Source: a virus | Virus record (IMG/VR): IMGVR_UViG_3300028840_000789 | Span: 3,687-67,686 of that record | Direction: 5' to 3' (one strand) | Length of the DNA stretch: 64,000 bases | Shown: positions 23,701 to 64,000 of the stretch, piece after piece | Numbering within the stretch: position 1 is the stretch's first letter | Layout: every line of letters begins with the position of its first letter | Notes under the pieces: generated by a model | Seen by the model: only the letters and a program-made list of their open reading frames with translations | Told to the model about the DNA's origin: nothing | Databases searched by the model: none | Position numbers and translations under genes: made by a program

Positions 23701-26700
23701 GTGGAAATAACTAAGGGCAACAACATCAGCAACACCTTGATAGAACTCTTCGGAATCAATCAGTACACTATCTTCACCAAGACCAGATCGAAACACCATG
23801 TTCTGATCTTCATCAAGCATTGCTGTCATGTATAGCTTATTCCCACCTATCGCAATGTCAATACCGTTAGGTGTAATATGTATAAAGGAATCGTTTTCGT
23901 TCTCAACCGTCTCCATCTTGTCGCGGAGGTACTCACCCTTTTCAAGGTGTGCAGTATCCATAAAGAGACGTACATAATTCTCAAGACCTTTGGCAGTAGA
24001 TAAGTTAAAGCCAGCTTTTTCAGCAGCTTTAAAAGCTTCTGTAGTAAGGTTTTGTGTAAGATGTAAACGAATAGCTTCTACAATAGAAGTAACGATTTCA
24101 GGTCGTGTGTCTAGTCTTGTAGACATAAGAGGTATAGCAAAGTAGCTATCCTTTGTCTTAGGTACGAACGCATACAAGTGACCACTATTAAGATCGTGTC
24201 CAACATACTCACCCGCAGGTGACTTACCGTTAAAGTATTGAATACCTTTAGAAGTTTTAACACCAATAGAAACATTGGGATCTTTGAAAGCCTCTGCAAC
24301 ACTCATGGGCTTCTTACCAGCAGTAAAGGCTAAGTGACCTTGACTCTTATGCTCGATCTTCGATTGGTAAACTCCCTGCTTCACAATAGCTTCACGTGCT
24401 ATCCGTAGCATCTCTAAATCATCCTCAACATTCTCACCAACAACGCGATTAGGTATGCTATCAGTATCTGCTAGATAACCAATAATCTTACCATTCTCAT
24501 TCTTGATGGCAATAGGAATGTGATCATACTTCTGGTTACCTTCCTTATCAGCACCTTTCTCAACAAGTGATGCGTAAGTATTAGTACCATCATCATAATC
24601 ACGATCAACTTCCAATGTAACCTTAGTACCCTCGGTATAGAACCCGATAGCCAGCATCAACGGATCACGAAGTTCTTGACTCAGCTCATTACCCTCATCA
24701 GTAATCTGATCACCGTTCCTTTGGAAAGGTCTAGAAACATAAGATATTTTATTGTGACCCCACAACAGTAACTTGTTATCGAGATGAACTGTTTGTCCAT
24801 TCTCATCAGTTATAGTCTCACTAGCTTCCTTGTCAAGATCTTTAGCAATACGGTTAATCTCAAGCGGCTTCTCCGTATTAGTCGTATTAGTAGTTGATAC
24901 ATTAGCAGGGTTCTTAGGATTCGTAGCTCCAGTTCCTGGCTTTGCACTACCACCATCCTGACCGTCCCCGCTTTCAGCAGCCTCCTCAGGCGTAAACTTA
25001 TCAGCAATTTGTTCCCATATCTTCTCTTCCTCACCACGCTTAATCGTGCCTTCTATAGGAAGCATGGCAGCGTTCAGACCCTGCATCATGATCACTCGAT
25101 CGACGGTGTCCTTCTTGTAGAAGATCTTAACCATCGCCTTCTTACCATTATCACCAATACCGTCAACAGTAACTTGCGACGGATTCTCATTAGGCTTATA
25201 TACTTTAGGTGGTTTCTTAGGATCAGTAACTACACCGGTACCTGTCTCTTCCGTCTTCTTGGCACCATCTTCTTTCTTACCATCAGTACTCTTACCAGCA
25301 ACTGTGGGATCAGTGTTCTCCTCACCAGATTCTTTCTCAGTCTGCTTCTTAGCAATCTTCTTACCAGCACGTTTCTCTCGCTTAGCCTTAGCTGCATCCT
25401 TCTTACGTTGAGCTTTGTCAGCCTCAGCTTTCTCTTTCATCAGCTTCTTAGCCAACTCAAAGTCTTTCTTAGCTTGCTCTAAGCTAGTAGCATTAGCAAG
25501 CTGACTTGTGACGGAATCCTTGAAACTTCTAATAATAGCTCGTTCCTTGAGATCACGACTAAGTTCATGATCACCATCAAACTCATTAGACTCAATCGTT
25601 GCTTGCTTACGATCAATAGCAGCCAGGTTATCTTGATGCACCTTAATCTTACCTTCCAACTGATCACGTTGCGCCTTCATCTTATTGATCTGACGCGTAA
25701 TCGTATTAGTAGGAGTCTTTTTATGAGGAGGCTCAAGACCCTTATCCTCAAGCATCTTGATCGTACTATTACGTTTCTGAATCTCTTGCTTCATAGCCTC
25801 ATGCTCTTCAATAAGAGTATTCAGCTCATCACGCTCTTTAGTTGCAACATGAATATCAATATCGTCTGCATTGATAGCATCCCCACGTTCCCGTGCGAGA
25901 TCGGAGAGTAACTTCTCCTTGCGGGCACTAATTTTATTGTCAACTTCTTCAAGATGTTTATTAGCAAGTTCTTGATGACGTGACAATCTAAAGATCTCTT
26001 TAAGTCGAGGTTGGAATACAGGATTAGAGTACTTAGCACGTAGTCCTAAGAACTGGTTCTCCATCGTGATCATCCGCTTCTGAAACTGATTAAGTTCAGC
26101 CAGTTCCTCTTCGAGCATAGCAGTGTTCTCATTCGCATCCTTAGCAGCCTTAATTTCAGCCTGCTTATCAGATACCGCACCTTCGAGCGTACGTTCCAAC
26201 TTATCCGTAGTACCACGTTCAAAGTTCTCGTATGCTAAATCAATAAAGCTATCTTCCCGTATATATTCAGCAGCAGCACTCTCACCTTGATTCGTAGCTT
26301 GACGTAATGCAATACCACGATTGATTTGCTCCTGCAACTTGTTCTCGACATAAGCATTGTTACGCTTAATTTGCTCCTGTTGCTTGGTGTAGTCCTCATT
26401 GATACGGTCTTTGTTCATGAGGTCACCAGGACCTTGTATAATACCATATTGTATTGGGCCACCAAGGAATCCCATAACACCTTCAAGAAGAGCTTGTTCA
26501 CTAGTAGCAAACGACCACAAACGTTCCTGCATCGTTGTCGGAATACCATAGTCAAAGACTACACCAGCACGATCCTTAGCTTGAAACTTCGCCTCCTTCT
26601 GAATGACGTTCTGACCAATTTCTTCTACAGATTCACCAACTGCTTGTACAAGTGGGTTATCGACAGATAGCTTCTTAAAGGAATCTCTAAATGCTTTAGC

Positions 26701-27714: not shown

Positions 27715-29708
27715 TATTGGTAGATTCCATTAGATGCCGCAAAATATCGAGCAACTTGTTTAATAGATAGTCTTGCTGGTTTCCCATTGATCGTTGTTCT
27801 AAAGAAAGTTCCTTTACCTATATATTGATCATTATCATCAAATGCATAGTCAGCTTCCCACGTTCCAGTTAGATCACCTAGGGTACCGAGATTAATAGTA
27901 GTGGGTTCCGACACGCGTGTCTCTCCTAGCATCACTTGCCTAGCACCCTCAAAGCCCGCTGCATTAATCTGACGTTCAATTTCATCAGATTGCATCCAAT
28001 ACGTCTCACCTTGGATTGTCCACTCCATCGCCTCCTTATCTACAAGTGGAATATTAAGACCAGCAAGTTGTACTTGGGACTTAAACTTGCGCATCTCATC
28101 ACCATCGTTTAAATCGACACCAGCTTTCTTAGCAAGCTCATGAATAGTATGTTGTTTTCCATCCTTATCAAAGAGCAATGTGCCTGTAAGTGCACCAAAC
28201 TCTGCGGAGGCATCATCACCACGATATACACGTTCAATAGTTTTATGAGTGTCTTCACCAGCAGGAAATCCTATAGGTGTCATAGTTTCATGCTCATCAA
28301 TAAAGCTATTGTAACGATTCTGAATCTTTTCATCAAGTTCCGCTATTAAGGGTGCGCTAGGATCAATCATTCCTTCACCTTTGGGCTTCATCAACTCTTT
28401 AAATACGTCCTCATGTCCAGCTTCTTTATACACATCCTCCATTATTCCGAGCATTCCTCTATGCGTAGTATTGAAAGCTTCCTTATCAAAGGTTCCATCA
28501 CTCTTACGATAAATATCAACATACTCTGTTATATTAGTAACAGGTTGTTCTGAAAGCCGTCTTGCGACAAGATATTCATTCCGTATTGCTGGATCAAGAC
28601 CTTGTAAGAACGCATCTGTGAGACCATTACGTTCCATCTCGCCAAAGCTAAAGGTATCAAGAGTAGGATCACTTTGTACAATAGCCATTCGTGCTTTACG
28701 AAGTCGTGAATTAATGTGGCTTGTTATAGCTTCCTTATTAACCTTCTTAAAGTCTTTAGCAACTGGGTTATTAACAACATGCCGTTTAGTTAGAGCTTGT
28801 GACCAGATGTTATTCTTAGCACCTTCACCTGAAGGATTAAGTGCTCCAGGTATCTGAAAGTTACTCTCAACTCTACTATGCTTTTGATTTGAACCCGCTT
28901 GATACAAGTAGTTATACAAGTAGTCGCGTACACCTTTCTTTAGCGTACCATCAGCATTACGGATCTCACCCAAACCATTCTCCATTGCAACACGTCGAGC
29001 TAACTGATTACCACCTTGTGTTGAATCGGCAAATTCGTCAAGGACTTCATCCACACGATCTCTAATCCGTTGGTCAGTAATACCACTATACTTGCTGGTC
29101 TTTAACATATTGACAGTACCAGCAGCAGTACTTAAACCCATCACCTGCGGGTCACCTGTACTCATATTAGCAATGAGCTTATCCATATGACGTTTAGCAT
29201 CCGATAGATGATCAAGAGCTAACTCCTTACCATGCTTATACGAATGCCAGTTACCTTCATCATCTTGCCATGTACCCGTAGGCGCATTCGGAGTAAAGTC
29301 CCAAATAGTCTGACCCTTTGCCCTCGACTCTCTCATAAACTGCTTCTCGAACTTCTTTTCATCAGCAGTATCTTTCATAGCTTGTATTCTAGGATCAGCT
29401 ACATACTTACGAATAAGTTGTTTGGCACTCCGTTGGAATTGCTTACTCTCAAATGCACCATCATAATCTTCTAACATCAAACCAATATCCTCATCAAATT
29501 CACCAGCAAGTGCATTACGAATATCTTGATCGTTAGCATCTACTTCCATAGTGCCTAGTATCTCCTTTGCCTGCTCCGTAATGAGTTCACCCTCTTCATA
29601 CTTCTTGACGAGGGTGTCCTGCATTCCCGAGAAAGCACCAGTAGTATCAATAGGAGTTGGTAGGTTAAACGGTTGGAAGTTAAATCCAAGTTGCGCCTTT
29701 TGTGCCAT
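27714..29708 (-). CDS. Virion cargo/ejection protein, 664 aa
   Basis: Helical protein directly upstream of the RNAP, the usual position of crAss-like cargo proteins; FQPF.LP N-terminus. Confidence 0.6.
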   Translation of the reverse strand: MAQKAQLGFNFQPFNLPTPIDTTGAFSGMQDTLVKKYEEGELITEQAKEILGTMEVDANDQDIRNALAGEFDEDIGLMLEDYDGAFESKQFQRSAKQLIRKYVADPRIQAMKDTADEKKFEKQFMRESRAKGQTIWDFTPNAPTGTWQDDEGNWHSYKHGKELALDHLSDAKRHMDKLIANMSTGDPQVMGLSTAAGTVNMLKTSKYSGITDQRIRDRVDEVLDEFADSTQGGNQLARRVAMENGLGEIRNADGTLKKGVRDYLYNYLYQAGSNQKHSRVESNFQIPGALNPSGEGAKNNIWSQALTKRHVVNNPVAKDFKKVNKEAITSHINSRLRKARMAIVQSDPTLDTFSFGEMERNGLTDAFLQGLDPAIRNEYLVARRLSEQPVTNITEYVDIYRKSDGTFDKEAFNTTHRGMLGIMEDVYKEAGHEDVFKELMKPKGEGMIDPSAPLIAELDEKIQNRYNSFIDEHETMTPIGFPAGEDTHKTIERVYRGDDASAEFGALTGTLLFDKDGKQHTIHELAKKAGVDLNDGDEMRKFKSQVQLAGLNIPLVDKEAMEWTIQGETYWMQSDEIERQINAAGFEGARQVMLGETRVSEPTTINLGTLGDLTGTWEADYAFDDNDQYIGKGTFFRTTINGKPARLSIKQVARYFAASNGIYQ

Positions 29709-36939: not shown

Positions 36940-37417
36940 ATCGAAGTCTCTTTAATGGATCACTACATGATTTAGATAGCAAGGCTTTCGGCTGTTTGGT
37001 TACCTGTAGCTTATAGCGATTACCGCCTTCTTCTACAAACATATTGTTACCAACATTCCAATGATAGAAAACCTCGTCAGTATGATAAACAAACCAAGGT
37101 TCACCACCATTATCGCCTTTGAGAGGGGTAATACCTTGATCTACTAATTGTTGTCGATAGCGTAGACTAGCTGGCATACTAAGAACAGGTTTATTGTAAT
37201 CCCGCTGTTTAGCACTAATACGAAAGGTACCAATCGGTGTACGGACTTGATGTCCATCAACAACCTCCTCAATCAGCCTCTTTAACGTCATCGTTACAAC
37301 TGACCGGAACTGTTCGTAAGGTACTTGCTTGCGGAGTGGGAATGTCTTATATGCCCTCTTTAGGTCTGGCTTCATCAATCTGAATTTCAGGTTCGTAGTC
37401 TTTACGGTTAGTTTCAA
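36926..37417 (-). CDS. IHF/HU-like DNA-binding protein of the crAss-like tail module, 163 aa
   Basis: Helical N-terminus then G..V..P.G.F.I; basic; conserved position between ring genes. Confidence 0.6.
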   Translation of the reverse strand: MKLTVKTTNLKFRLMKPDLKRAYKTFPLRKQVPYEQFRSVVTMTLKRLIEEVVDGHQVRTPIGTFRISAKQRDYNKPVLSMPASLRYRQQLVDQGITPLKGDNGGEPWFVYHTDEVFYHWNVGNNMFVEEGGNRYKLQVTKQPKALLSKSCSDPLKRLRYEEN

Positions 37418-37976
37418 AGTAGAGCTTTTTCATTGCATGAAACAAGTCGTCTGGTATCTCTAGTACAGGAATACAAGGTACACCATTTGCATTCTTTATA
37501 CGACCAACAGTAAGTAAATCAGCAAACACTGCTCTAACAGATACATACTTGATGTTATCAAAGAAGTATAAGTAACCGTTAGCATAGAAGTAATACTGAC
37601 TTTTGGAAAACTTAGTGGTGCGGTAGGCTAGTCGCTCGGGTGTTATAAAAGAGTGGAGGCTTTGTCCATCTGTTCCGCTAACTGATATAAAACCAGGTGC
37701 GTCATCTTGATACATAATAGGTTTAGGAATCTGTTCAACAGTTCGATAAACTTTCTGAGTACTACCAGGCGATAAGCTGAGCGTATCCTCCACTAGAGCA
37801 AGTCGCTCAAGCGTATGTGCATGCATATGAGGTACTGTACGACGCTTCGTAATCTCACGTCTTAGTATCTCGCCTCTTGCTATCGAGAGATCACGTCGAA
37901 TCCGCAACTTGTTCTTAGTTGAATCCGACTGGCCCTCATAAGCAGCAATGTTATCAACAGCTTCTTTGAATAGCAT
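37347..37976 (-). CDS. Tail ring protein (start re-assigned to MLFKEAV, ~209 aa)
   Basis: RT...IPKPI and YYF.NGYLY....V.V.AVF.D motifs; the longer upstream start runs through a terminator. Confidence 0.65.
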   Translation of the reverse strand: MLFKEAVDNIAAYEGQSDSTKNKLRIRRDLSIARGEILRREITKRRTVPHMHAHTLERLALVEDTLSLSPGSTQKVYRTVEQIPKPIMYQDDAPGFISVSGTDGQSLHSFITPERLAYRTTKFSKSQYYFYANGYLYFFDNIKYVSVRAVFADLLTVGRIKNANGVPCIPVLEIPDDLFHAMKKLYFETNRKDYEPEIQIDEARPKEGI

Positions 37977-38002
37977 AATATATGTCAAGTTTTTTATACA
38001 AT

Positions 38003-38032
38003 AAAAAAGGTACGAAAAAATCGTACCTTTTT
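38003..38032 (-). terminator. Intrinsic terminator after the capsid/auxiliary capsid genes (possibly bidirectional)
   Basis: AAAAAGGTACGA-N5-TCGTACCTTTTT inverted repeat with a U-tract on the minus strand. Confidence 0.8.
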
Positions 38033-38084
38033 CAAGTAAAAGTATAGCGAAAGTCAGAGAAAGACTCACTATCATTAGATGATA

Positions 38085-39374
38085 TTAAATACCACCTAAA
38101 CCATCAGCACCGTTCAGAAGCACTCCAAGTACGTCCTCAAACTCAGCTTGACCTCCGTTGTTATCCGTTGACGGGAAAGCAACTTTCAAATGCTGGAATA
38201 GTTTGTGGGCAGTCTTAGCGGTAGCACCCGTTCCGACCTGATGAGGTAATTGATAAACGAAATCGTACTGATCGTAAGTCTCCGTAGATACAGTCTTGAG
38301 GTCATCAAGAGGCATGTACCTGTGAATAAAGTCAGCAGTACCTTTCAGTCCGCGGGCCTCATTCTCATCGGCTTGTACGTCAGCAGCAATACCTGCACCC
38401 TTAGTTCCTGAAACCAGGTAAGAGACTTCGGCATCCTCATATACACTACCAGAGCCAGTAGCGAGTGAGAAGTTGCGTCCTCTTACTTGACTAACAATAG
38501 TCAGACCTAAATTGGTCGTCGGGGCAGTAGCACCAAGGTCTCTTGCATTAGCATTGGCAATCGTTGCACTTGCAAACGGCCATGCCCTATCAAGAACCAA
38601 AGTAGTAGTAGCAGTTCCAGTCTGTGCTTGGAAGAGCTGTCCATTCAAGGAAACATAGTCACCTACACCTACACCATGATTGGCGGAAGTAGTAAGAGAG
38701 GTTGAACCAAGAACAGCGGCAACCGTAGCAGAGTTAGCAAAAGCAGAGCCTCCACCATCAGCAATTGAAACACTAGCTGCAACCCAGCTGTATTTTGTGT
38801 CAGCCTCAATAAGAGCGGCCAGCTTCAACAGCATGGAAAGATCCGTTTCTGAATCATCAGCAGTGGTATTTACATTGAAGATATCTCTGTAAATTGCACC
38901 ACCTTGATCTGAATTTTCAGTATCCAGAATCTTAATCTCAAGAGCGTCATACTTGCTAACAGCAACAGGCGTATTGAGATCACCAGCTGAAACCGTAGCG
39001 GGAGTGGAAGGATCAACTACATAGCCAATACCGAACACCTGATAAACAGGAGCAGTATAAGCAGCAGCTTTATACTTCACAAGACCGTTTGACGGCACAG
39101 GAATGGGTTGAGAAACTTGAGCACCAGATGAAGTTCCAACAGCAATCACAACATGATCACCATCAAAAGAACTATCAGGCACTTTACCAGCGGCATCCGC
39201 GCCACCGTCAATGATAAGGGCTTGCTTGTATGCGTTGTTCGTACTAGTAGGAGAAATCCCATAGATACCAACAGCACCTTCTCTCAGATCCACCGGAGTG
39301 AGAGCGGTGTTAGCACCAGCACTAGACTTGTTGTCAGCATACGCCAAGTCCTTCATAATCATTACTTTACGCAT
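38085..39374 (-). CDS. Auxiliary capsid (decoration) protein, 429 aa
   Basis: A/T/S/G-rich beta protein three genes downstream of the MCP and ending at a strong terminator; C-terminal TYD.Y....L.VAFP motif. Confidence 0.65.
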   Translation of the reverse strand: MRKVMIMKDLAYADNKSSAGANTALTPVDLREGAVGIYGISPTSTNNAYKQALIIDGGADAAGKVPDSSFDGDHVVIAVGTSSGAQVSQPIPVPSNGLVKYKAAAYTAPVYQVFGIGYVVDPSTPATVSAGDLNTPVAVSKYDALEIKILDTENSDQGGAIYRDIFNVNTTADDSETDLSMLLKLAALIEADTKYSWVAASVSIADGGGSAFANSATVAAVLGSTSLTTSANHGVGVGDYVSLNGQLFQAQTGTATTTLVLDRAWPFASATIANANARDLGATAPTTNLGLTIVSQVRGRNFSLATGSGSVYEDAEVSYLVSGTKGAGIAADVQADENEARGLKGTADFIHRYMPLDDLKTVSTETYDQYDFVYQLPHQVGTGATAKTAHKLFQHLKVAFPSTDNNGGQAEFEDVLGVLLNGADGLGGI

Positions 39375-54980: not shown

Positions 54981-55000
54981 TTGCTATACTTAAACATACT

Positions 55001-55032
55001 GCAATATACAAAGGTCTTACTCCATTTCCTAA
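55001..55032 (-). promoter_or_regulatory. Candidate Bacteroidota-type housekeeping promoter for the minus-strand block
   Basis: Minus strand TTAG-N20-TATATTGC, resembling the -33 TTTG / -7 TAnnTTTG consensus, about 20 nt before the ATG. Confidence 0.4.
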
Positions 55033-55056
55033 TTAGTAACGAAAATAATGTAGAAA

Positions 55057-55176
55057 ATATTTGGTTCAATATTTAGCTCCTAAAAATGGTTCAAGATGTT
55101 GGTCTTAGAGAGTACCGTCCTGTTGGTCTTTGGAGTACCAAGATATTGGTCTTTAGAAGGCACAGGATGTTGAACC
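55057..55176. repeat. Iteron-like direct repeats with a 23-24 bp period, flanked by GGTTCAA/TTGAACC inverted copies
   Basis: TGTTGGTCTT at 55097 and 55121, TATTGGTCTT at 55144, TGTTG at 55168; GAGTACC follows the first two. Confidence 0.7.
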
Positions 55177-55488
55177 AGGAATCGACCTTAACTTCTTCTC
55201 TGTCAGAGAGTTAACCCTCTATCCCCCTATAAAAGTTACACATATAGAAATAATATTCCATATTATACTTATGAACCACGAAGTCGGATCAATTAGTATT
55301 CCCATCATGGGTAACTTTACTACCCGCTTACCTTCGTGGGTAACTGTATCACTAGGTGCTCCCCTGCTAGGTAGCCTATCGTCATGGCCCGATAGGGATG
55401 CTAAGTGTGTAATAGCAACGAGTTACCCTTACTATGATACAAGATACGGGTGATATTGCCCTTACTTTGTTACACGTGTCGTATAGGG

Positions 55489-55573
55489 TGGTCATAGAAA
55501 AGACGGTACCTCTATATATGCTGATAATAGACCCCCGGGTGGTATATATGCTGATTTTTCATGGCCATAGAAA
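55489..55573. repeat. Nested direct repeats upstream of the plus-strand block
   Basis: TATATATGCTGAT at 55513 and 55543 (30 bp apart), bracketed by TGG(T/C)CATAGAAA at 55489 and 55562. Confidence 0.65.
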
Positions 55574-55681
55574 TTTTGGTAGTGTTTTTACGGACGTGGG
55601 AACCACCTTAAAGAACCGACCCCTCCGAAAGGAAGAGGGTTCATACCCCCGTGGTCTTACTTTAACTAAAATAATTATCTT

Positions 55682-55981
55682 ATGAGCTTTTCAGAATTAT
55701 TCAAAGGTTCAGCTAAAATGGCTGACGTAAAAGATCTTGAAATCGGCGATGCTGCTGATGGCATATTGACTTCAGTATGGACGAACAGCGACGCGTCGCA
55801 TTTCTTCGGGTCTGTCACCGTTGGTGACAAAAAAGTACGTGGTATCATAGGTTCTGTTGAAGACTATGATGCTGAGACACTTGCCGATAAGATCGGTACA
55901 ACAGTCGAAGCGGAGTATCGCGGCACGTACACGGATGATAATGATAACGAGCGTCCATCTTGGGCACTTCGTGGCATCTAA
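55682..55981 (+). CDS. Acidic beta-rich protein (OB-fold-like?), 99 aa; first gene of the plus-strand block
   Basis: AT-rich leader typical of Bacteroidota genes; followed by a terminator. Confidence 0.7.
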   Translation: MSFSELFKGSAKMADVKDLEIGDAADGILTSVWTNSDASHFFGSVTVGDKKVRGIIGSVEDYDAETLADKIGTTVEAEYRGTYTDDNDNERPSWALRGI

Positions 55982-55984
55982 ACT

Positions 55985-56010
55985 AAGGGAGCTTCGCTCC
56001 CTTTTATTTA
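55985..56010 (+). terminator. Intrinsic terminator
   Basis: AAGGGAGC-TTC-GCTCCCTT followed by TTATTT directly after the stop codon. Confidence 0.75.
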
Positions 56011-56292
56011 TATGAGATTTAATGTCAATCGGTTGTCTGGCACACCACATACACTTACAACTTTTTTAATGAGGTGAACAGTCAAACGATTGTACTTTAG
56101 GTATACTTACTATAAATATATGTACTACAATCCAGATGGTACTATTAATGTTACTGGTGATCGCAGTTGGGACGCTAAGTAACTAATAGTACTTGATATA
56201 GATGTGACACATCTAACGATGCACATCGACTCAAGCAGGTGAAGTATAGTAACCTGCTTGTTTTACTTTGTATCTCACTAACTAACATACAT

Positions 56293-56673
56293 ATGATACA
56301 TGAAAAATGGTTTGCTATAATCGCAGCAGCTGCTTTTATAGCTCTTGTTACAATCCTTGGTACTCAATGTGAAAGCAGGAGTGGCAAGCTTTCTAAAGCT
56401 CAAGCAATGGAGGGTGTTACACACCGAGCTGAATTTGGTGTCAGTGATTATACATTGCATCTTGATGATACTATTATTGGTCATGAGAACATACTTGGTA
56501 TGTCTCAAAATGAAGAGATGATAGTATTGATCAAGCAAGAAGACAGTGTCGAGTACACATGTACTTTATTTGATGATGAGTTTACTGCTGTTTATCACAT
56601 ACCACGTCATGGTAATCCTGTGCTTGCAGCGTGTATTGCTCATGTTCCTGTTGAGTGGCATAAGACAGAGTAA
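56293..56673 (+). CDS. Exported or membrane-anchored protein (~126 aa)
   Basis: Start MIHEKWFAIIAAAAFIALVTILGTQC after an A/C-rich leader; hydrophobic N-terminus ending in Cys (possible lipoprotein). Confidence 0.65.
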   Translation: MIHEKWFAIIAAAAFIALVTILGTQCESRSGKLSKAQAMEGVTHRAEFGVSDYTLHLDDTIIGHENILGMSQNEEMIVLIKQEDSVEYTCTLFDDEFTAVYHIPRHGNPVLAACIAHVPVEWHKTE

Positions 56674-56692
56674 CTTTAATAACCACAACCTA

Positions 56693-56806
56693 ATGTTACT
56701 CTTCTTTATTGCCTACAGCTTGCTAGGCTTGCTGTGGATGAGTGCATCTGTTCTTGATGCACCTTATGGAATTGAAACTCCAAATGGTTTAATCATAATC
56801 AAATGA
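56693..56806 (+). CDS. 37-aa membrane peptide
   Basis: MLLFFIAYSLLGLLWMSASVLDAPYGIET...; A/C-rich leader. Confidence 0.5.
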   Translation: MLLFFIAYSLLGLLWMSASVLDAPYGIETPNGLIIIK

Positions 56807-56810
56807 AAAC

Positions 56811-56927
56811 ATGGAAACTCTAAAGAAAGTGCGTGTTGGTAAGGAGTTACGCAAGAAGCAGATTGAAATAATCCTAGTCATTTCTACGATGCTCGGATTA
56901 TTTAGCCTTGCGGTAGCTCAACTATAA
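56811..56927 (+). CDS. 38-aa membrane peptide (basic N-terminus plus TM)
   Basis: Translated by hand: METLKKVRVGKELRKKQIEIILVISTMLGLFSLAVAQL. Confidence 0.5.
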   Translation: METLKKVRVGKELRKKQIEIILVISTMLGLFSLAVAQL

Positions 56928-56941
56928 ATTATATGATGAAA

Positions 56942-57252
56942 ATGATCAGCGATACTTTAACTAGTATCGCTGGTTTCACCGTCGAATGATCACCTCAACG
57001 TGGTGACGGTGTCTAGTAGCCCATTACGCGGTGAAGCTAACGATCATAAGGGAAAAGGATGTCTATCAGTTAGTGATAATTCCGTACTAAAAGCACTAAC
57101 GATACTAGCCTTACCGCTAGACAGGATCTAGTGAGTAGACTAATAACTATGCAAGCGTATACGCTGTTAGTCATAGTAAGTCGCTGTTTGATCAGCAGAG
57201 ATGTAAGCAAGGTGACACATGGTCGGACATGATGTGAGACATCCTTTCCCTT
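56942..57252 (+). ncRNA. Unassigned, highly structured intergenic RNA with two adjacent domains
   Basis: 10-bp perfect hairpin 56947-56972; 16-bp closing stem 57048-57064/57237-57252 enclosing at least five hairpins; no ORF of 60 aa or more. Confidence 0.6.
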
Positions 57253-57286
57253 TTACTTTGAAACTTTCACTAACATACAATATACT

Positions 57287-57481
57287 ATGAAAGAGTTCAG
57301 ACTATATACTAGAGACGATGGTGCTACGTGTCACATTAAGTATGCTGATCAATTGGCACCTAGTGTAATTTACAAATGTACTGCTCCTGCTACTCATGTC
57401 ATTGGTAAGGGCAGACTACGTTGTAAAGAGCACTTCGAGAAATGGTTGAAAAAACAATCACGTAAACATAATACACTATGA
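57287..57481 (+). CDS. Small Cys/His (Zn-finger-like) protein, 64 aa
   Basis: C...C...C..H pattern; AT-rich leader. Confidence 0.6.
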   Translation: MKEFRLYTRDDGATCHIKYADQLAPSVIYKCTAPATHVIGKGRLRCKEHFEKWLKKQSRKHNTL

Positions 57482-57789
57482 GTAGATTTCATATTCAATT
57501 AGACGAACATAGATCAATGTCTTATGGTTATGATCGTCCACTTCAAGGATACTTCATTCAGATATATGATGAACGATATGCTTGGAAAGAAGAGAATACA
57601 CCAGAAGAAAATGAGGCAGCGGAAGCTGTTGATTGGACTGGTGAAGGTGAGGTAGAGAGTTATGCTACTAATAATATGCTTCTTGCAAAGAAGGTTGTTA
57701 GTCGTAGCAGGATACTTGAGATACTTGAGGAGAATGGTGTTCCAGAAGATCACCTACATCAAGTGGCTCTTGATCTACCAATCGTATAA
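57478..57789 (+). CDS. Hypothetical phage protein, 103 aa
   Basis: YGYDRPLQGYFIQI motif; ATGA overlap. Confidence 0.7.
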   Translation: MSRFHIQLDEHRSMSYGYDRPLQGYFIQIYDERYAWKEENTPEENEAAEAVDWTGEGEVESYATNNMLLAKKVVSRSRILEILEENGVPEDHLHQVALDLPIV

Positions 57790-57897
57790 GAAAACAGGAG
57801 TGATGTGCCTGCTGGCAGTACCGCAATTATTTCCATAATGCCTGATGGCCAGTCGCCTTCACTCCTTAACAAAGAAACTAACTTAAACAAATATACT

Positions 57898-58146
57898 ATG
57901 GGAACATTTAAAGAAATGCTACTTCAACATCCAGATGTTGAATATGTCACAATACCATCTAAAACAGATGCGGACTTCCAGAAGGTGCTGAACCAATGGA
58001 AGCATGATTATTACTTTGTCCTCCTTGATCACCATTGGTATCGAGGTAAAGATGATAAGCTGTTTCATGGAGCACTCGTTGCTCGTGTTTCTAGAGAGAT
58101 TGCTTATAGTTTAATTGATCTTGAACATAGATTACTTAATTCTTAA
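57898..58146 (+). CDS. Hypothetical protein (~82 aa)
   Basis: Start MGTFKEM after the leader AAACAAATATACT; the upstream GTG start lies inside a hairpin. Confidence 0.65.
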   Translation: MGTFKEMLLQHPDVEYVTIPSKTDADFQKVLNQWKHDYYFVLLDHHWYRGKDDKLFHGALVARVSREIAYSLIDLEHRLLNS

Positions 58147-58150
58147 CGTC

Positions 58151-58426
58151 ATGGAAGATTATTATGAAGATTATTATGAAGAAGATCTGGACGAGTGTCA
58201 TGCTCCCCCTTTAGATGATCCTGATGATCCTTATCATGCTGAAAATAAAGCTCATTTTCAAGAGCTTGATTTTATTGATGGTAAGCGGAATGTTTATGAT
58301 CGTGAGTATGATCTTGTACGCGATCCGAAACATACGAATGATGGTATCCAATTTGATCACAACTTGCTGATTATTATTGGTATTATAATTTTGGGCATAC
58401 TGATTGGTATGGCCGGTAATGTCTAA
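58151..58426 (+). CDS. Acidic protein with a C-terminal TM anchor (~91 aa)
   Basis: MEDYYEDYYEED...; C-terminal LLIIIGIIILGILIG. Confidence 0.6.
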   Translation: MEDYYEDYYEEDLDECHAPPLDDPDDPYHAENKAHFQELDFIDGKRNVYDREYDLVRDPKHTNDGIQFDHNLLIIIGIIILGILIGMAGNV

Positions 58427-58443
58427 CTAAAACAAATAAACTA

Positions 58444-58776
58444 ATGAAACGATTCCTGATTGCTTTAAGCATCCTGTCTATCTTATTGATAGCAGGATGC
58501 CTCAATTACACCTTTGGTCAACAAACTCGCTTTGGTAAAAGCGGTACAATTGGTCGTGGTGTTTACTCATGTCCTACTTACACTGGTCACGATCCATTCT
58601 TTGCAAAGAAAGTAAAGATACGTGGTTCAAAGAGTGTAAGAGAGATAAGAAAGATTGAGCGTAAACGAGACAAGTCACCTTACTGGTACAAGACTCGTGC
58701 TCAAATGATTGCTGAAAAGATATTGCCCTGGAATTGGGGTGATCGAAACCGCAGAAGAAATGTATGCAGAAGGTGA
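58444..58776 (+). CDS. Basic exported protein / putative lipoprotein, 110 aa
   Basis: MKRFLIALSILSILLIAGC signal with a lipobox-like LIAG-C. Confidence 0.6.
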   Translation: MKRFLIALSILSILLIAGCLNYTFGQQTRFGKSGTIGRGVYSCPTYTGHDPFFAKKVKIRGSKSVREIRKIERKRDKSPYWYKTRAQMIAEKILPWNWGDRNRRRNVCRR

Positions 58777-58993
58777 TGAAAGTGGATGGAAGAAGTGGAC
58801 AGGTCATCTACGACCTTGTCCACTTGTTTTTTGTCTCAGACTTAAACGTGGCTGGAGAGTACATTTTAAACAACAAGATGACTTAGCTTATGCTGATTAT
58901 TATAATCAGCGTGGAGAGTTAATCTTGTTAGTTCACTTAAAGATGAACTTAATTAAAGTTGATCAACAATTTACCGATTTTATACTTAACTAA
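58760..58993 (+). CDS. Hypothetical protein (~77 aa)
   Basis: ATG at 58760 overlapping the upstream gene end. Confidence 0.5.
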   Translation: MYAEGDESGWKKWTGHLRPCPLVFCLRLKRGWRVHFKQQDDLAYADYYNQRGELILLVHLKMNLIKVDQQFTDFILN

Positions 58994-59000
58994 TGAAACA

Positions 59001-59363
59001 ATGAACAAGATTCAATTGATTGTACTAAGTGTACTCACGGTAGGCTTTGGGCTTACCTTGTACGGTGTTGTAGTCGATAGCAGTGTATTCACGCTGTCAG
59101 GTGCTACAGTAATGTTCGGAACCATGCTATGGTTCTTGCTGACAATGATAGGCGGTGAGGATAAGTCACAGTTTGTAACTCAATACCATCTTCTATCAGT
59201 GTTGGAACAGCTTGCTGAAACAGATAAGCTGATAATAGATCGAGTAGATGCTCATCATAAGGTTCTTGAGCTTCATACAAAGGCTCTTGAGGTGCTTGGT
59301 GACAAAGTATTTCCTGTCAAATCTAAAGATTTTACTGATGCACTTCGTAGGTCACAAAATTAG
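59001..59363 (+). CDS. Two-TM membrane protein (~120 aa)
   Basis: MNKIQLIVLSV... with two hydrophobic helices, then a helical soluble tail. Confidence 0.65.
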   Translation: MNKIQLIVLSVLTVGFGLTLYGVVVDSSVFTLSGATVMFGTMLWFLLTMIGGEDKSQFVTQYHLLSVLEQLAETDKLIIDRVDAHHKVLELHTKALEVLGDKVFPVKSKDFTDALRRSQN

Positions 59364-60230
59364 TCTGATTGTATTGGCACTAGTTGTGCTGATTATGCCA
59401 GCTTGTCTAACAGACAAAGAAGAAGTTGAAGTATATGTAGGTGAAGGATACTATCGTGCCATAATATTGATTTTGATGGTGCTACTAGTTATTCACCTAT
59501 CGCATACATACAACCGATTAGTACGTATAACCTACGTAATGCGCGTGTTGCTGGAGATTCTGTTCTAGAACTAGTTGACAAAATAGTAACTGATTGTTTC
59601 ACTCTTGAAACACACAGATGCTATGATGGACCAATTGGTGCTACAACACTTAACGCTCTTGGTGGTAAGTTTGGATTTAACTTAATCTGGAATGATGATT
59701 GTGATGTTACTGATATTACAGTAATCAAGAATGAATTATCTTCCAAGCGATATCCTAATCCGTTCTCTACCTATGAGTTTAATGTAGGCACATTCTGGAC
59801 AGAAGGATCAGTCTTCGATAAAGATGATATTTATACATCTCCTTATCGAGAACCTGATACAGGTATAATCTGGATACCAGAGCTGTACGCTCCAAGCGAA
59901 CCAACATACAACTGGAAGTTTTGGCTTTCAATCAATGGTAAAACTTACAAGCTTGAGACGCAAATACGTTTCGATAATAATACTCTTATTCCAGAGGATG
60001 CGAAATGTACAGCATTTGCGTTGCCTGTTACTTGGATATCTGTTGATGTAACACGTAGTGGTTATTGTAATTTGTTCACATTTACTGTTGCAGAGCAGAT
60101 TGATGTGAACTATTATGAGATTCAGTTTTCAACTGATGCTGTTGAGTGGGAGACTGTCGGAATGGTAGCTCCTCTTGATTTTGATAAAGGAACTTATACT
60201 TATGACTTTGAACATTGTAACAATGAGTGA
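59338..60230 (+). pseudogene. Frameshifted lipoprotein gene (~297 aa if joined) ending in a T9SS-cargo-like 'LPV' Ig domain
   Basis: Signal peptide ...LIVLALVVLIMPA-CLTDKEE in one frame; a 261-codon open frame 59445-60230 in the -1 frame with no ATG and no GTG/TTG until 60021. Confidence 0.65.
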
Positions 60231-60828
60231 AAAGAAAAATGAATTAGCAACAAAACATGTTACTGTAATTGGTGGTACTCTCATTAACCTACGAGATGCG
60301 GATACTTTTGGTGAAGCAATCGGCGATCTTTTTGTAGAGTTTGCTGATGCACCTGCATTTGATGCATGGTCACTAGATGTACATGAGCAAATCGTGGAAG
60401 GTAATTCACCTCATGATGGTAGAATCTCTGATCTACTATTAGAAGGTTTAAATATTGCCATGAAAGAGGGTGTTACTGAAGTGACTCCTCAATTCGTTGT
60501 TCATATAAGCCTGGCTATTGGTAGAATGTTACAGTCTGCTGCTAGTAGGCGACACGAACGCATGGAAGAACTCATGAACGAAAGCATGGGAGAACTCAAT
60601 GACAAGATGAAAGACTTAATGGAACATCTACATTTGGGTGAAACTACTCCGGAAGAGTGCCATGATTGTGAACATTATGATGAGTGTACCAGCCCTTTAA
60701 AGGCTGATAAGAGCGAGATAGCGGAGTACAAGGGACAGATGGAAGTGGACGATGATCTTGCTACTCTGATTAAGGAAGTGCAGGATGAGATTAAGAAAGA
60801 GTTGAATGGTGATGATGAGGAGCCTTAA
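60223..60828 (+). CDS. Acidic hypothetical protein with a CxxC...C motif (~201 aa)
   Basis: Start MSEKKNEL overlapping the upstream stop; CHDCEHYDEC. Confidence 0.7.
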   Translation: MSEKKNELATKHVTVIGGTLINLRDADTFGEAIGDLFVEFADAPAFDAWSLDVHEQIVEGNSPHDGRISDLLLEGLNIAMKEGVTEVTPQFVVHISLAIGRMLQSAASRRHERMEELMNESMGELNDKMKDLMEHLHLGETTPEECHDCEHYDECTSPLKADKSEIAEYKGQMEVDDDLATLIKEVQDEIKKELNGDDEEP

Positions 60829-60847
60829 ATAGGCTGGAACCAAGTTG

Positions 60848-60878
60848 GGGGGCAAGGAAACTTGCTCCCTTCTTTTAT
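60848..60878 (+). terminator. Terminator-like hairpin directly upstream of the twister ribozyme
   Basis: GGGGGCAAG-GAAA-CTTGCTCCC followed by TTCTTTTA. Confidence 0.7.
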
Positions 60879-60879
60879 T

Positions 60880-60940
60880 ATATGTAGTAATGTAGCCAAT
60901 GACGGTCACAAGCCCGTATAAAATACAGAGTGATACATAT
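60880..60940 (+). ncRNA. Twister self-cleaving ribozyme, type P1
   Basis: P1 ATATGTA/TACATAT; U^AA cleavage site 60888/60889; P2 TGTA/TACA; P4 ACGG/CCGT with loop TCACAAGC; pseudoknots CAC/GTG and GC/GC; conserved GA on the 3' side of L1. Confidence 0.9.
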
Positions 60941-60958
60941 GAACTTAATTAAAATACA

Positions 60959-61624
60959 ATGCGTAAATTTGTCTTAACATTAAGCGTGTTGATCATGATG
61001 GTCAACACTGCTTACGTGAGTCCCCACGAAAGCGGGACAGATGATGGCGTTCGTGTTGGTGATACTAGAAATGGTTGGCAAAAGTTTGTTGATCGTATTA
61101 AGTATGGCCAAGATGATGCTGAGTACAAGCGGTTCAATCCTATCTATGCCTTTAAGAAGGAGATAAAGATGATGGGAATGCACCGTGATAAGGTTCGCAA
61201 GAAAGCTAAACGACTAGCTCGTAGATTTAATGGTCGTTATGCTGAAGGCGAAGGCTTTAAGGGCGTCTACTATATATTTGTAGAGTGGACAATGCCAGAC
61301 ACTAAAGGTTATTTAAGATACCACCGGAACTATTACTATTTCAAAGGTGGGCCATTCTTAGATGGCTATCAGTATGTTACTGGTGAAGAGGAGCTATACA
61401 GCTTGATCTTAAAGAGTTGTGAGATTGCTGCCAAAGGTGGTAGTCAGGAGTGTAAACGTGTAAAACCTCATAGATATCTTATTAGTAGGTTTGACATTGC
61501 AAACTTGTACACGTTTCACAATCCGATTGACCATGTATTTGTATCATTCGGTGCAGAACATGATCCTGCTGGTATTAAACCAGATCGTTTTCAAATGAGT
61601 GTTTATCGTCAAGAATTAATGTAA
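60959..61624 (+). CDS. Exported protein with a signal peptide, 221 aa
   Basis: MRKFVLTLSVLIMMVNTA N-terminus; AT-rich leader following the ribozyme. Confidence 0.7.
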   Translation: MRKFVLTLSVLIMMVNTAYVSPHESGTDDGVRVGDTRNGWQKFVDRIKYGQDDAEYKRFNPIYAFKKEIKMMGMHRDKVRKKAKRLARRFNGRYAEGEGFKGVYYIFVEWTMPDTKGYLRYHRNYYYFKGGPFLDGYQYVTGEEELYSLILKSCEIAAKGGSQECKRVKPHRYLISRFDIANLYTFHNPIDHVFVSFGAEHDPAGIKPDRFQMSVYRQELM

Positions 61625-61848
61625 TGGATGATATAACAGCGCGGGAACTTCTTGCTTTTATAAGTAAGAATCTACAGATGCCTCACTTTGGTTTGTATCC
61701 TCCAGAGGATGCTCATAGAATGGCGACTGTTAATGCCTTGCGTCTTATTGATAAGATTGCAGAGATGCGTGGTCTTGACTATGAGACTAACGGAAAAGAG
61801 TTTAATCAAATAATTGAAACATTCGAACATGGCGAAGAGAAAAGCTAA
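61624..61848 (+). CDS. Hypothetical protein, 74 aa
   Basis: TAATG coupling to the upstream gene. Confidence 0.6.
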   Translation: MDDITARELLAFISKNLQMPHFGLYPPEDAHRMATVNALRLIDKIAEMRGLDYETNGKEFNQIIETFEHGEEKS

Positions 61849-62332
61849 AGGTGGCTACAACCAATCACGACCTACTGAACGTAAGCGTGGTAAAATGAGC
61901 AGACGTGTACGTGACCCCAGATGTGATGAGGTTGCTACCGTAAGAGGATTTGTCAACAAGCTCCAACAGGGTAGGCTACGTACTGGTGGAAATCAAATGT
62001 CAAAGCGATTGCTCAATGATATGATTCACTCCAAGAAGAAATCAGCCTTTAAAGATGATCCTACTGGACATACCAATGCGGATTTGAATCGGTGTTCCGA
62101 ATCATCCCGGCTTAAACTTGCTATTCGTGTAGCGTCTACTTATAAAAGACGTGGTGCAAGGGAGATCTATGGTATGCCAAAGGATGCTTGGAGACGAATG
62201 GTCAAACGTGCAAAGCGAGGTGCTCAAGAGGTACATGGTAAAACACAACCATCTGCCAAAGAGAAGCGCCTTCAAAAGATTACTGGTCTACCCTATAGCC
62301 AGGTAAGAGAAATGATAGCAGCGCAGAAGTAA
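61829..62332 (+). CDS. Highly basic protein (~167 aa), probably nucleic-acid binding
   Basis: K/R-rich; start MAKRKAK; C-terminal helix-turn-helix-like KITGLPYSQVRE. Confidence 0.65.
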   Translation: MAKRKAKGGYNQSRPTERKRGKMSRRVRDPRCDEVATVRGFVNKLQQGRLRTGGNQMSKRLLNDMIHSKKKSAFKDDPTGHTNADLNRCSESSRLKLAIRVASTYKRRGAREIYGMPKDAWRRMVKRAKRGAQEVHGKTQPSAKEKRLQKITGLPYSQVREMIAAQK

Positions 62333-62397
62333 GTGGAAGAGGTGCTGTAAACTATACTCCAATTAAAACAAGTATTAACGGAAAAAATCGTAGAAAA

Positions 62398-62937
62398 ATG
62401 GAAAGTCGTTTATTGATTGTAACTGGAATATCGGATGAAAAGACCGATAAGAATGGAATGCCTTATGTAACCGTATCGGTTAGTCAGCCATCTCGTAAGA
62501 GAATTACTGACGAGGCAACAGGTGAGTCTTACATTGTTAAGACAAAAGCTCGAAGTACTGCATTTAATGCGTGGAAACATAGCTATTTGGAAGTTGCTGG
62601 TATTGCCAAGGATCTTGGGAAAGAGATCGAAGCACTCAAGCCTAACGAGTATGCTGATGCCAAGCCTGATTTCGCTTATACCCTTGAAGAAGGTGACCGC
62701 GTAGAAGGCGACATCATCACTCGGGAAGTCGAGCCTTATTCAATCGTGAATGAGGAGACTGGTGAAGAGCGTGAGGTTGATACCTACAGTTGTGCTGTTC
62801 TCGGTAACACATCCGATGCTTCTTTTAAGAACCTCATTAAGCAGACCTTTAACAGGAATGGTCATGAGGTACTGGAAGGTGCTGTCGATGATGCTGTTAT
62901 CGCAACTAAAACACGTGAGAACGTATTTCAGGACTAA
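62398..62937 (+). CDS. OB-fold / ssDNA-binding-like protein, 179 aa
   Basis: K.DKNG.PY and G..V.G.I....VEPY.I pattern; beta-rich and acidic; followed by a terminator; function inferred. Confidence 0.5.
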   Translation: MESRLLIVTGISDEKTDKNGMPYVTVSVSQPSRKRITDEATGESYIVKTKARSTAFNAWKHSYLEVAGIAKDLGKEIEALKPNEYADAKPDFAYTLEEGDRVEGDIITREVEPYSIVNEETGEEREVDTYSCAVLGNTSDASFKNLIKQTFNRNGHEVLEGAVDDAVIATKTRENVFQD

Positions 62938-62967
62938 ATAGTCCATCTGGAGGATAGTTTAATCATG

Positions 62968-63004
62968 AAAGCAGGGGGAGAGATCCCCTTGCTTTTACTT
63001 ATTT
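62968..63004 (+). terminator. Intrinsic terminator
   Basis: AAAGCAGGGGGA-GAGA-TCCCCTTGCTTT followed by TACTTATTT. Confidence 0.75.
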
Positions 63005-63020
63005 ATTAATAGAAGAAATC

Positions 63021-63485
63021 ATGAAAGAAGAATTAATATCATTTGAAACAGCTTTACTGGCTAGGAAGAAGGGATTCCGGTTCACTAGTTATCGTAAGGC
63101 AGGGTATCTTACTCATGACTACTACAAGCATCCGGAAGGAAGTTTTGTTGAAAGAGATGATGAAGGCGATATCTTTACTGAACCACAATGGAGATCATCT
63201 ATAGTTAATGGTCAAAGATCTAAACTTAGAATGAGTCATCTATTAAATGATCGTATTGTTTATGCTTTTACTCAATCACTAGTACAACGGTGGCTAAGAG
63301 AAGAACATGATATTCATGTATGGGTACAACCTAACTATATAAGGCGTGATGGTAAACAAACTTACTCTTATTACGTTACAGGAAGTCCCCCCTCACAAAG
63401 AATATCTAATGCAGTACAAATTGGTACTTACGAAGAAGCATTGGAACAAGGTCTTATTAAAGGTCTTAAATTAATAGAATTATGA
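63021..63485 (+). CDS. Conserved Bacteroidota-phage protein of unknown function, 154 aa
   Basis: ISFETA.L...KGF, TQSL.Q.WLRE.H.I.V and TYEEALE.GL motifs. Confidence 0.75.
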   Translation: MKEELISFETALLARKKGFRFTSYRKAGYLTHDYYKHPEGSFVERDDEGDIFTEPQWRSSIVNGQRSKLRMSHLLNDRIVYAFTQSLVQRWLREEHDIHVWVQPNYIRRDGKQTYSYYVTGSPPSQRISNAVQIGTYEEALEQGLIKGLKLIEL

Positions 63486-63880
63486 AAGAAGCCGAATACA
63501 AGAGAAGTGAACTTTGGTATAATCGTAAAACCAAAGAGAAAGAACCTATTCCTGAGATGACACCTGCTCAATTAAGCATTAAGATTCGTATTACAGGTCG
63601 TCGTATTCGAGATCACAAAGCAAAGCTGGATAAAATATATGATCTCCGAAGATCCCTGATTCGAACAATGGTAAAGAAAGGGAATCGAATAAAGACATTG
63701 GAAGAGCTACAATCCCACAGCAGCTTTATTATTACCGGGCCTGCTGTAACAGGTTCACCTGGTGCTGTCATCAATTATCCTACAGTTGTTGAACATGGTA
63801 TTGATATTGATGACTATCTTGAGAAAGGTTACTTCATTAAGTTTGAAGAAATATCCGAAGATGATGAAGACAATCTCTAA
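63482..63880 (+). CDS. Hypothetical protein, 132 aa
   Basis: ATGA overlap; I.EMT..QL motif and coiled segment. Confidence 0.65.
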   Translation: MKEAEYKRSELWYNRKTKEKEPIPEMTPAQLSIKIRITGRRIRDHKAKLDKIYDLRRSLIRTMVKKGNRIKTLEELQSHSSFIITGPAVTGSPGAVINYPTVVEHGIDIDDYLEKGYFIKFEEISEDDEDNL

Positions 63881-64000
63881 AGAAAGGGTATATAGAATCT
63901 AGCTCCACTCCTTAGAGGGCGGAGGACTTGGACAAGCAAGAGTTGGTCACTTGCATTTGTCATAGGAATTGTGTATATTACTGGATTCCACAAAGATATG

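Follow-up and report, generated by a model that had tools for sequence, protein, structure and literature searches.

Terminator hairpins, a twister-type ribozyme and two folded spacers in the early-type region of an uncultured marine crAss-like phage

The plus-strand genes at one end of a viral contig (IMG/VR record IMGVR_UViG_3300028840_000789) are separated by gaps that fold as RNA, and the locus raises the question of whether these folds cut a long early message into units or serve more ordinary purposes. The window analyzed here is a stretch of 64,000 nucleotides (nt), bases 3687-67686 of the linear contig of 67,686 nt (completeness estimate 76%), and its end is the contig end; the plus-strand block in question begins near position 55590 of the window. 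An initial annotation had proposed that extended folds occupy seven sites in the gaps of this block, one of them a recognisable ribozyme, and that a single early polycistron is segmented there by several self-cleaving RNAs and RNase III-type stems. Its observation is partly confirmed and its interpretation partly supported, the latter being right in spirit at one gene junction and over-extended elsewhere. On balance, the block is probably an early-type region punctuated mainly by RNA hairpins of the plus-strand transcript, with one twister ribozyme and two lineage-specific spacers built of stacked hairpins.

The ribozyme, at 60880-60940 on the plus strand (+), is a type-P1 twister without stem P3, as identified by a match to Rfam family RF03160 (twister-P1), by a covariance model of our own (R1) and by hand-drawn stems. 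With an E-value threshold, RF03160 aligned over its full model to 60884-60936 (50.1 bits, E = 4.8e-9) with the optional P3 absent. Stem P1 pairs 60880-60886 with 60934-60940 (seven Watson-Crick pairs plus G-A), P2 pairs 60891-60894 with 60924-60927 (four of four pairs form) and P4 pairs 60902-60904 with 60915-60917 (A-U, C-G and G-C, all formed). Pseudoknot T1 joins 60907-60909 to 60930-60932 (C60907-G60932, A60908-U60931 and C60909-G60930; triplets CAC/GUG) and pseudoknot T2 joins 60895-60896 to 60912-60913 (GC with GC). The predicted cut lies between U60888 and A60889. P1, P2, P4 and both pseudoknots, with P3 and P0 optional, are the defining features of the type in the available text of a review (PMC5408937). 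The alignment to RF03160 matches UAA, GC, GGUC-CAAGCCCG, UAAA and GAG-G, and both the U-A cut-site dinucleotide next to P1 and the conserved L1 and L4 nucleotides are present. Apart from the missing P3 and a score below the family threshold, the window element differs from the family in one respect: an A replaces C in the L4 loop and a U replaces G in the GAGGG strand, which together make a compensated middle pair of pseudoknot T1.

This A-U pair is frequent among phage twisters. In the matches listed from viral contigs, the A form had U as its partner in 116 of 123 occurrences (109 of 116 distinct ones), while the canonical C form was partnered by G in 80 of 99 and by U in 1 of 99. A60908-U60931 can be read from these counts as a compensated form of the middle pair that is common in phage contigs. 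Model R1 was built from 50 of 56 distinct P3-less phage twisters, with the window element excluded. Across the 50, the three stems were paired in 94.5% of cells versus 71.7% in shuffles (0 of 500 as high), and both-sided changes occurred at 9 of 11 stem pairs. R1 gave the window element 68.9 bits (E = 2.4e-19), and the next match on either strand of the 64 kb reached 10.2 bits. Membership in the twister-P1 family is thereby established on sequence and structure; self-cleavage is predicted.

The twister stands at a gene junction, behind an intrinsic terminator. This terminator, T4 (60847-60870, +), follows gene 60226-60828 and consists of a 10-base-pair (bp) stem with six G-C pairs and then TCTTTTATTA; its folding energy is -18.0 on the plus strand versus -11.2 on the minus strand (-). 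Its U tract ends 9 nt before the twister, and the predicted cut falls 13 nt behind its stem. The next start codon, at 60959, lies 26 nt past the GAGUG strand and 18 nt past the end of P1. Among 58 comparable phage twisters, a strong hairpin ended within 8 nt of the cut site in 43, versus 157 of 559 random positions in the same loci, and an ATG open reading frame of at least 40 amino acids (aa) began within 40 nt downstream in 30, a count that has no control. These phage hairpins match the optional P0, described in the twister literature as a hairpin just upstream (PMC5408937, in its available text). The upstream hairpin of the window, unlike a stacked P0, has a U tract and stands apart from P1, and is therefore read as a true terminator. 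If the polymerase reads through T4, the twister would cut between U60888 and A60889, leaving an upstream RNA that would have the T4 hairpin and a 2',3'-cyclic phosphate at its 3' end, and a downstream message that would begin with a 5'-OH folded into the ribozyme core. The proposed segmentation by self-cleaving RNAs would apply to one element, which would split read-through RNA, and not to several. Here, the cleavage, the read-through, the transcribing polymerase and any RNase III step are what we infer.

A second ribozyme was sought on both strands of the 64 kb, and nothing significant was found. In Rfam searches at E ≤ 10 over 55000-64000 and over each spacer alone, the twister was the only credible match, the rest being generic hairpin matches. 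A hepatitis delta virus (HDV)-like ribozyme is a nested double pseudoknot with a G-U first pair in P1, a P1.1 formed from the GG after P1 and a catalytic C in J4/2. A weak match to the HDV-like model RF02682 at 56977-57047 (17.5 bits, E = 0.66 in a 401-nt search), where a 7-bp P1, a 6-bp P2 and a CUAA can be drawn, was rejected: its first P1 pair is C-G, the GG after P1 is absent and J4/2 is about 8 nt over-long. No transfer RNA or transfer-messenger RNA (tmRNA) was detected in the window.

Processing of long phage transcripts into single-gene mRNAs by ribozymes was proposed by Perreault et al. (2011; PMC3088659), whose available text calls it unproven, and the available text of PMC6765202 likewise summarizes the cutting of phage transcripts into shorter mRNAs as unproven. 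In the haloarchaeal virus HF2, 13 nt separate a hammerhead from the early helicase gene that follows it, and a 5' end has been mapped close by (PMC3088659). The window twister resembles the phage and prophage hammerheads described there in being intergenic, just upstream of a start codon and in a phage early region. Unlike those systems, it stands alone, belongs to the twister class, comes from a crAss-like phage and is paired with a terminator, and no gene of the window is flanked by ribozymes on both sides, as genes or blocks are in that account (PMC3088659, in its available text). The terminator-twister locus adds one more case of a known arrangement rather than revealing a new system of processing. 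An unannotated twister was also seen in crAssphage cr273_1 (L288, NC_055904.1) at ~29480-29543 (+), with 38.4 bits in R1; a small gene ends 120 nt before it, no genes are annotated for at least 1.5 kb behind it, and its pseudoknot T1 carries a different compensated pair, reading UCC/GGA.

Terminators account for much of the remaining structure. A consensus scan returned 17 terminator-like sites versus 5.2 ± 2.1 in shuffles, and the three best on the plus strand each stand just after a stop codon: T1 (55985-56003; 8-bp stem with five G-C pairs, then TTATTTATAT) directly after the 99-aa gene 55682-55981, T4 (60847-60870) as described above, and T5 (62966-62997; 14 pairs, six of them G-C, then TTTTACTTATTTATT) after gene 62398-62937. 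All three combine the G+C-rich stem-loop, the U-rich tract and the position after a stop codon that characterize intrinsic terminators. Two further plus-strand stems have a UUUUACUU tail, namely T2 (56232-56260) and the helix that closes spacer B (see below), and both run into UUUUACUUUG as RNA. The exact string TTTTACTT occurs on the plus strand of the block at 56261, 57251 and 62993, in all three cases directly behind a stem, and the same stem-then-TTTTACTT pattern recurs in a late gap at ~37975-38084 and in a related locus (L123); such tails are therefore read as terminator U tracts rather than as promoters. Neither TTACTTTR alone nor TTTTACTT alone is enriched. Since three canonical terminators and two more U-tailed stems lie within it, the block is not an obligate single polycistron, and the earlier view that its gaps hold more than just terminators gives way to one in which much of the apparent structure consists of ordinary, predicted termination signals. 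The five terminator-type stems (T1, T2, the closing helix of spacer B, T4 and T5) would split the block into short units or read-through segments.

The folds were also assessed energetically, against 200 dinucleotide shuffles per element (100 for 56928-57286). Five of the seven listed folds proved real. Three beat the shuffles as they stand: 56172-56260 (z = -3.96, 0/200 shuffles as good), 56928-57286 (z = -5.67, 0/100) and 57796-57866 (energy -27.5, z = -3.70, 1/200). A fourth, 56024-56095, is borderline (z = -2.62, 4/200) and forms the inner part of the 38-bp hairpin H2, for which the extended fold 56003-56122 gave z = -4.04 (0/200). The fifth is the twister, which by energy reaches z = -1.95 and owes its identity to the covariance models. 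The other two cannot be told from shuffles, namely 55600-55655 (z = -1.63, 13/200) and, on the plus strand, 63903-63989 (z = -1.12, 26/200). The last lies in the final gap (63881-64000, +), which is cut by the contig end (z = -0.96 on the plus strand and -3.03 on the minus strand). The former lies in a divergent gene-free region of 701 nt between the late minus-strand block and the plus-strand block (54981-55681; z = -1.15 on the plus strand and -1.40 on the minus strand), which presumably holds early promoters. Short paired direct repeats are seen in this region, for example at 55110/55133, 55299/55328 and 55423/55456, and TATATATGCTGAT occurs twice, near 55513 and 55541; these repeats are possible promoter or operator sites.

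Taken as whole gaps, five of the nine in the plus block have z ≤ -3.38, among them the T5 gap (62938-63020; -3.38 on the plus strand and -1.35 on the minus strand), and the plus-strand value is the more negative in six of nine. Owing to G-U pairs, the plus-strand RNA of eight of eleven elements folds more stably than its complement, and a role in the transcript is therefore favoured. As controls, 54 coding windows of the plus block had a mean z of -0.97 (19% below -2 and 4% below -3), and five gaps of the minus-strand block ranged from -1.2 to +1.1. The claim that the structural block has almost no such folds stands for these five gaps, none of which falls below -1.2, but not for the late gap at ~37975-38084 (-), which is strongly folded into two hairpins with a CTTTTACTTG tail and a strong terminator (14-bp stem and U run). 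This gap follows a 429-aa gene (38085-39374), and the true start of the neighbouring open reading frame 37347-38075 is probably a later ATG near 37974.

The strongest folding is found in two spacers near the start of the block. Spacer A (55982-56292, +; z = -5.42 for 55975-56295) comprises T1, H2, H3, H4 and T2. H2, the first element of the spacer (56005-56118), is a long imperfect hairpin of 38 bp with three G-U pairs (energy -28.6), more stable as plus-strand RNA (-27.8) than as its complement (-21.2), and is a candidate target of a double-strand RNase. H3 (56138-56193) is a 23-bp hairpin (z = -3.57, 0/200; -21.5 on the plus strand versus -14.5 on the minus strand) that overlaps a 20-codon ATG frame, probably no gene. 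H4 occupies 56201-56227, and the terminator-like stem T2 has 9 bp and is followed by TTTTACTTTG. Spacer B (56928-57286, +) begins with a perfect 13-bp hairpin (56944-56975; energy -18.8, z = -8.13, 0/200), which stands 17 nt behind the stop codon of gene 56811-56927 and is terminator-like with a weak plus-strand U tract. There follow a branched 65-nt domain (56973-57037; z = -2.90, 0/200), in which the rejected HDV-like match is located, and a multibranched 205-nt domain (57048-57252; energy -67.8, z = -4.11, 0/200; 67 bp, seven of them G-U) whose closing helix of 16-17 bp runs straight into TTTTACTTTG.

Both spacers end in the same 3' module, which also forms the leader of the next gene. The first copy (56261-56292, +) reads TTTTACTTTG...CACTAAC...ATG with the ATG at 56293, and the second (57251-57286, +) leads to an ATG at 57287. 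The similarity of these two leaders, pointed out in the initial annotation, holds up: the pattern TTACTTTN{3,12}CTAAC occurs in the window only at 56263 and 57253, where 0.13 occurrences are expected and none of 100 shuffles had two or more. Local alignment of the two spacers scored 32 versus 19.3 ± 2.4 in shuffles (maximum 31), and the 35-nt module is their only similarity. Viral contigs elsewhere yielded 41 single matches to the leader motif, in unrelated contexts and consistent with chance. The spacers are thus stacks of independent hairpins rather than single large RNAs, and most likely they are structures that protect 3' or 5' ends or serve as nuclease targets, or else stable early non-coding RNA. 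A separate 26-bp imperfect hairpin, H5 (57796-57866, +), lies between genes 57478-57789 and 57898-58146, has no U tract and matches no credible Rfam family; it is a candidate RNase III site or stabilizer.

Several points weigh against the reading of the block as a region of terminators with one twister and two hairpin-stack spacers. No match in the whole window passes the curated Rfam thresholds, as the 50.1 bits of the twister fall below the gathering cut-off of 67.2 because the optional P3 is absent, and the innermost position of P1 is a G-A mismatch, found also in 7 of 56 relatives. The closest cultured relatives, phages phi14:2 and FpV4, gave no twister-P1 match at E ≤ 0.01, though control genomes were silent as well. 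A z near -3 is less exceptional than it seems because the coding windows of the block are already slightly structured. With its span of 200 nt, the helix that closes spacer B would be an unusual terminator, and spacer B folds nearly equally on both strands (z = -5.81 and -5.33), so that a role at the DNA level is possible there. Spacer sequence similarity was absent from every fetched locus and phage record, and covariation is confined to the twister because the spacers and the neighbouring genes have no alignable relatives. Finally, none of the listed sequencing runs that hold window DNA is RNA.

The alternative that fares best, possible though doubtful, is that spacers A and B each encode a stable early non-coding RNA, which would end at a terminator-like stem of its own with an UUUUACUUUG tail. 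According to the available text of a preprint (10.1101/2020.03.07.982082), Cellulophaga phage phi14:2 makes two abundant, unexplained early long non-coding RNAs, whose transcription exceeds that of most genes from the first time point on; in vitro, its virion RNA polymerase was active on denatured DNA alone, and no known motif marks its early promoters. The window, like phi14:2 from a marine crAss-like phage, also has two long gene-free stretches near the start of its early region; both fold strongly and end in the same 35-nt module, and folded gene-free gaps occur near the shared gene 57478-57789 in two relatives as well (L134, 338 nt, z = -3.98; L123, at least 792 nt, z = -2.41), a recurrence of kind rather than homology. 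However, no promoter could be identified, the Bacteroidota -7 motif TAnnTTTG not being enriched (54 versus 48 ± 6.8 expected, with none in the plus-block gaps), and the spacers share nothing beyond their last 35 nt. The phi14:2 stretches, at 705 and 1697 nt, exceed the spacers in length and mostly fold no better than shuffles (z = +0.87 to -2.70 in four pieces), show no blastn similarity to the window spacers and share no Rfam family with them, and one of them is tmRNA-like, a gene type that the window lacks. The parallel is positional only.

With regard to that phi14:2 region, a tmRNA-like gene was observed at 4031-4502 (+) of its genome (L138, NC_021806.1), inside the stretch of an abundant early long non-coding RNA (RF00023, 46.0 bits against a cut-off of 47, E = 6.8e-16; called by ARAGORN as a tmRNA with tag GSSVQKLAMVA). 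The NC_021806.1 record has no RNA feature there, and the available text of the preprint (10.1101/2020.03.07.982082) does not make the tmRNA link.

It is unlikely that the block yields one long early transcript of the virion RNA polymerase that is cut by several self-cleaving RNAs together with host RNase III. In phage T7, RNase III cuts the early mRNA at inter-cistronic stems of about two helical turns. The window likewise has long imperfect hairpins between early genes, and cutting at them would leave hairpin-protected 3' ends; H2 (38 bp) and H5 (26 bp) are long enough to suit RNase III, a virion-type polymerase motif is present (see below), one real ribozyme sits at a gene junction, and ribozyme processing of long phage transcripts is the very proposal of Perreault et al. 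(2011; PMC3088659, in its available text). Yet the 64 kb hold a single ribozyme on the two strands, only H2 and H5 are candidate stems, two of the seven listed folds are not significant, and the three canonical terminators inside the block do not accord with one obligatory polycistron. Moreover, the comparison with T7 is made from sequence, which cannot reveal RNase III recognition, and the literature searched held no demonstration of RNase III-type processing in Bacteroidota phages.

Quite unlikely, too, is that the folds other than the terminators and the twister are functionless, a lineage-specific self-complementary filler between mosaic early genes. The spacers have no detectable homologues, the early genes are indeed mosaic (1 of 24 tested proteins is common to 15 related loci) and the coding DNA of the block folds slightly better than shuffles; against this, several independent domains are each more stable than all 200 of their shuffles, the whole spacers reach z = -5.4 and -5.7, and the elements are biased towards the plus strand. 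At the other extreme, we regard as very unlikely that the spacers, with their common UUUUACUUUG...CACUAAC module, represent an undescribed class of phage early RNA element that, with the terminator-twister unit, determines the ends of a virion RNA polymerase's early transcripts and how long these last; such an element could, for example, be a cis-acting RNA that controls read-through of the block's terminators, or a cassette with an unrecognised self-cleaving motif. In coliphage N4, extruded DNA hairpins are the promoters of the virion RNA polymerase. A similar action of these stems as DNA is highly improbable: the need of the phi14:2 polymerase for denatured DNA and its motif-less early promoters, the equal folding of spacer B on both strands and the conserved sequence behind two stems just upstream of a gene would suit it, but eight of eleven elements are more stable as plus-strand RNA through G-U pairs, the stems vary from 9 bp to a 200-nt multibranched fold, the best three are textbook terminators after stop codons and the conserved motif has no meaningful context in the 41 other viral contigs.

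As to its source, the window appears from its proteins to belong to an uncultured marine crAss-like phage. Its large terminase (TerL), portal and major head protein fall into crAss-type PHROG families. A TerL search returned 159 phage records, every one below 60% identity; the best, at 34-35%, were Flavobacterium phage FpV4 and its relatives, and Cellulophaga and Bacteroides crAss-like phages were also among them. In viral contigs, TerL relatives were found at five loci with 42-45% identity, and of four TerL-relative records searched for twisters, three had no match at E ≤ 1 and the fourth a weak one (E = 0.107). Comparison of the window with 50,697 phage records showed no DNA similarity, near or distant. 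The host is probably a member of the Bacteroidota, because of the phage's relatives and because the plus-strand genes have A/T-rich leaders without a Shine-Dalgarno sequence.

An open reading frame of 5331 aa on the minus strand (11719-27714), which far exceeds the phi14:2 enzyme in length, has DFDVD at residue 3131. Motifs of this type are described for crAss-like virion RNA polymerases (10.1101/2020.03.07.982082, in its available text), and the protein is a candidate giant virion RNA polymerase fusion. Its motif fits early transcription by a virion RNA polymerase; the plus-strand block itself would be early by its position and by analogy with phi14:2.

The proteins of the block are little known. 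None of 20 scanned plus-block and neighbouring proteins matched Pfam or PHROG better than E = 0.005. The 221-aa protein encoded after the twister found no homologue but itself among 72 candidates, and viral contigs yielded no locus for it. A single conserved early gene was found, encoding a 103-aa protein (57478-57789, +), with five homologues at 53-59% identity (P0003-P0007), ten more distant loci and 36 invariant residues in a six-sequence alignment, and without a Pfam or PHROG family. It is the one of the 24 tested proteins shared with the 15 metagenome loci (L123-L137); these have no intergenic similarity to the window, and Rfam searches of 7 of the 15 gave nothing at E ≤ 0.01.

DNA of the window is present in two metagenomes, one from sediment and one from seawater, whose runs yield contigs identical to the window except for one inserted T. 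The contigs of both DNA runs (X1 and X2) have the same lengths and break points, and these may therefore be one data set filed twice rather than independent support. The inserted T follows 59461. In the window, the open frame 59445-60230 (+; 262 codons) has its first ATG only at 60162; the extra T joins the ATG at 59395 to this frame, and for that reason the window contig probably carries a 1-nt assembly error or variant after 59461.

Because the two spacers are lineage-specific, what comparative analysis can say of them is limited. Most of the apparent structured RNA in early regions of this kind consists of ordinary termination signals. Twisters are widespread, but what they do for bacteria and phages has yet to be proven. 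At the locus described here, a terminator, a ribozyme, an 18-nt leader and a gene follow one another in a clean arrangement that lends itself to testing. This stereotyped layout of hairpin, twister and start codon recurs in dozens of phage contigs, which points to one role, namely to provide a hairpin-capped end to the upstream RNA and a fresh 5' end to the message downstream.

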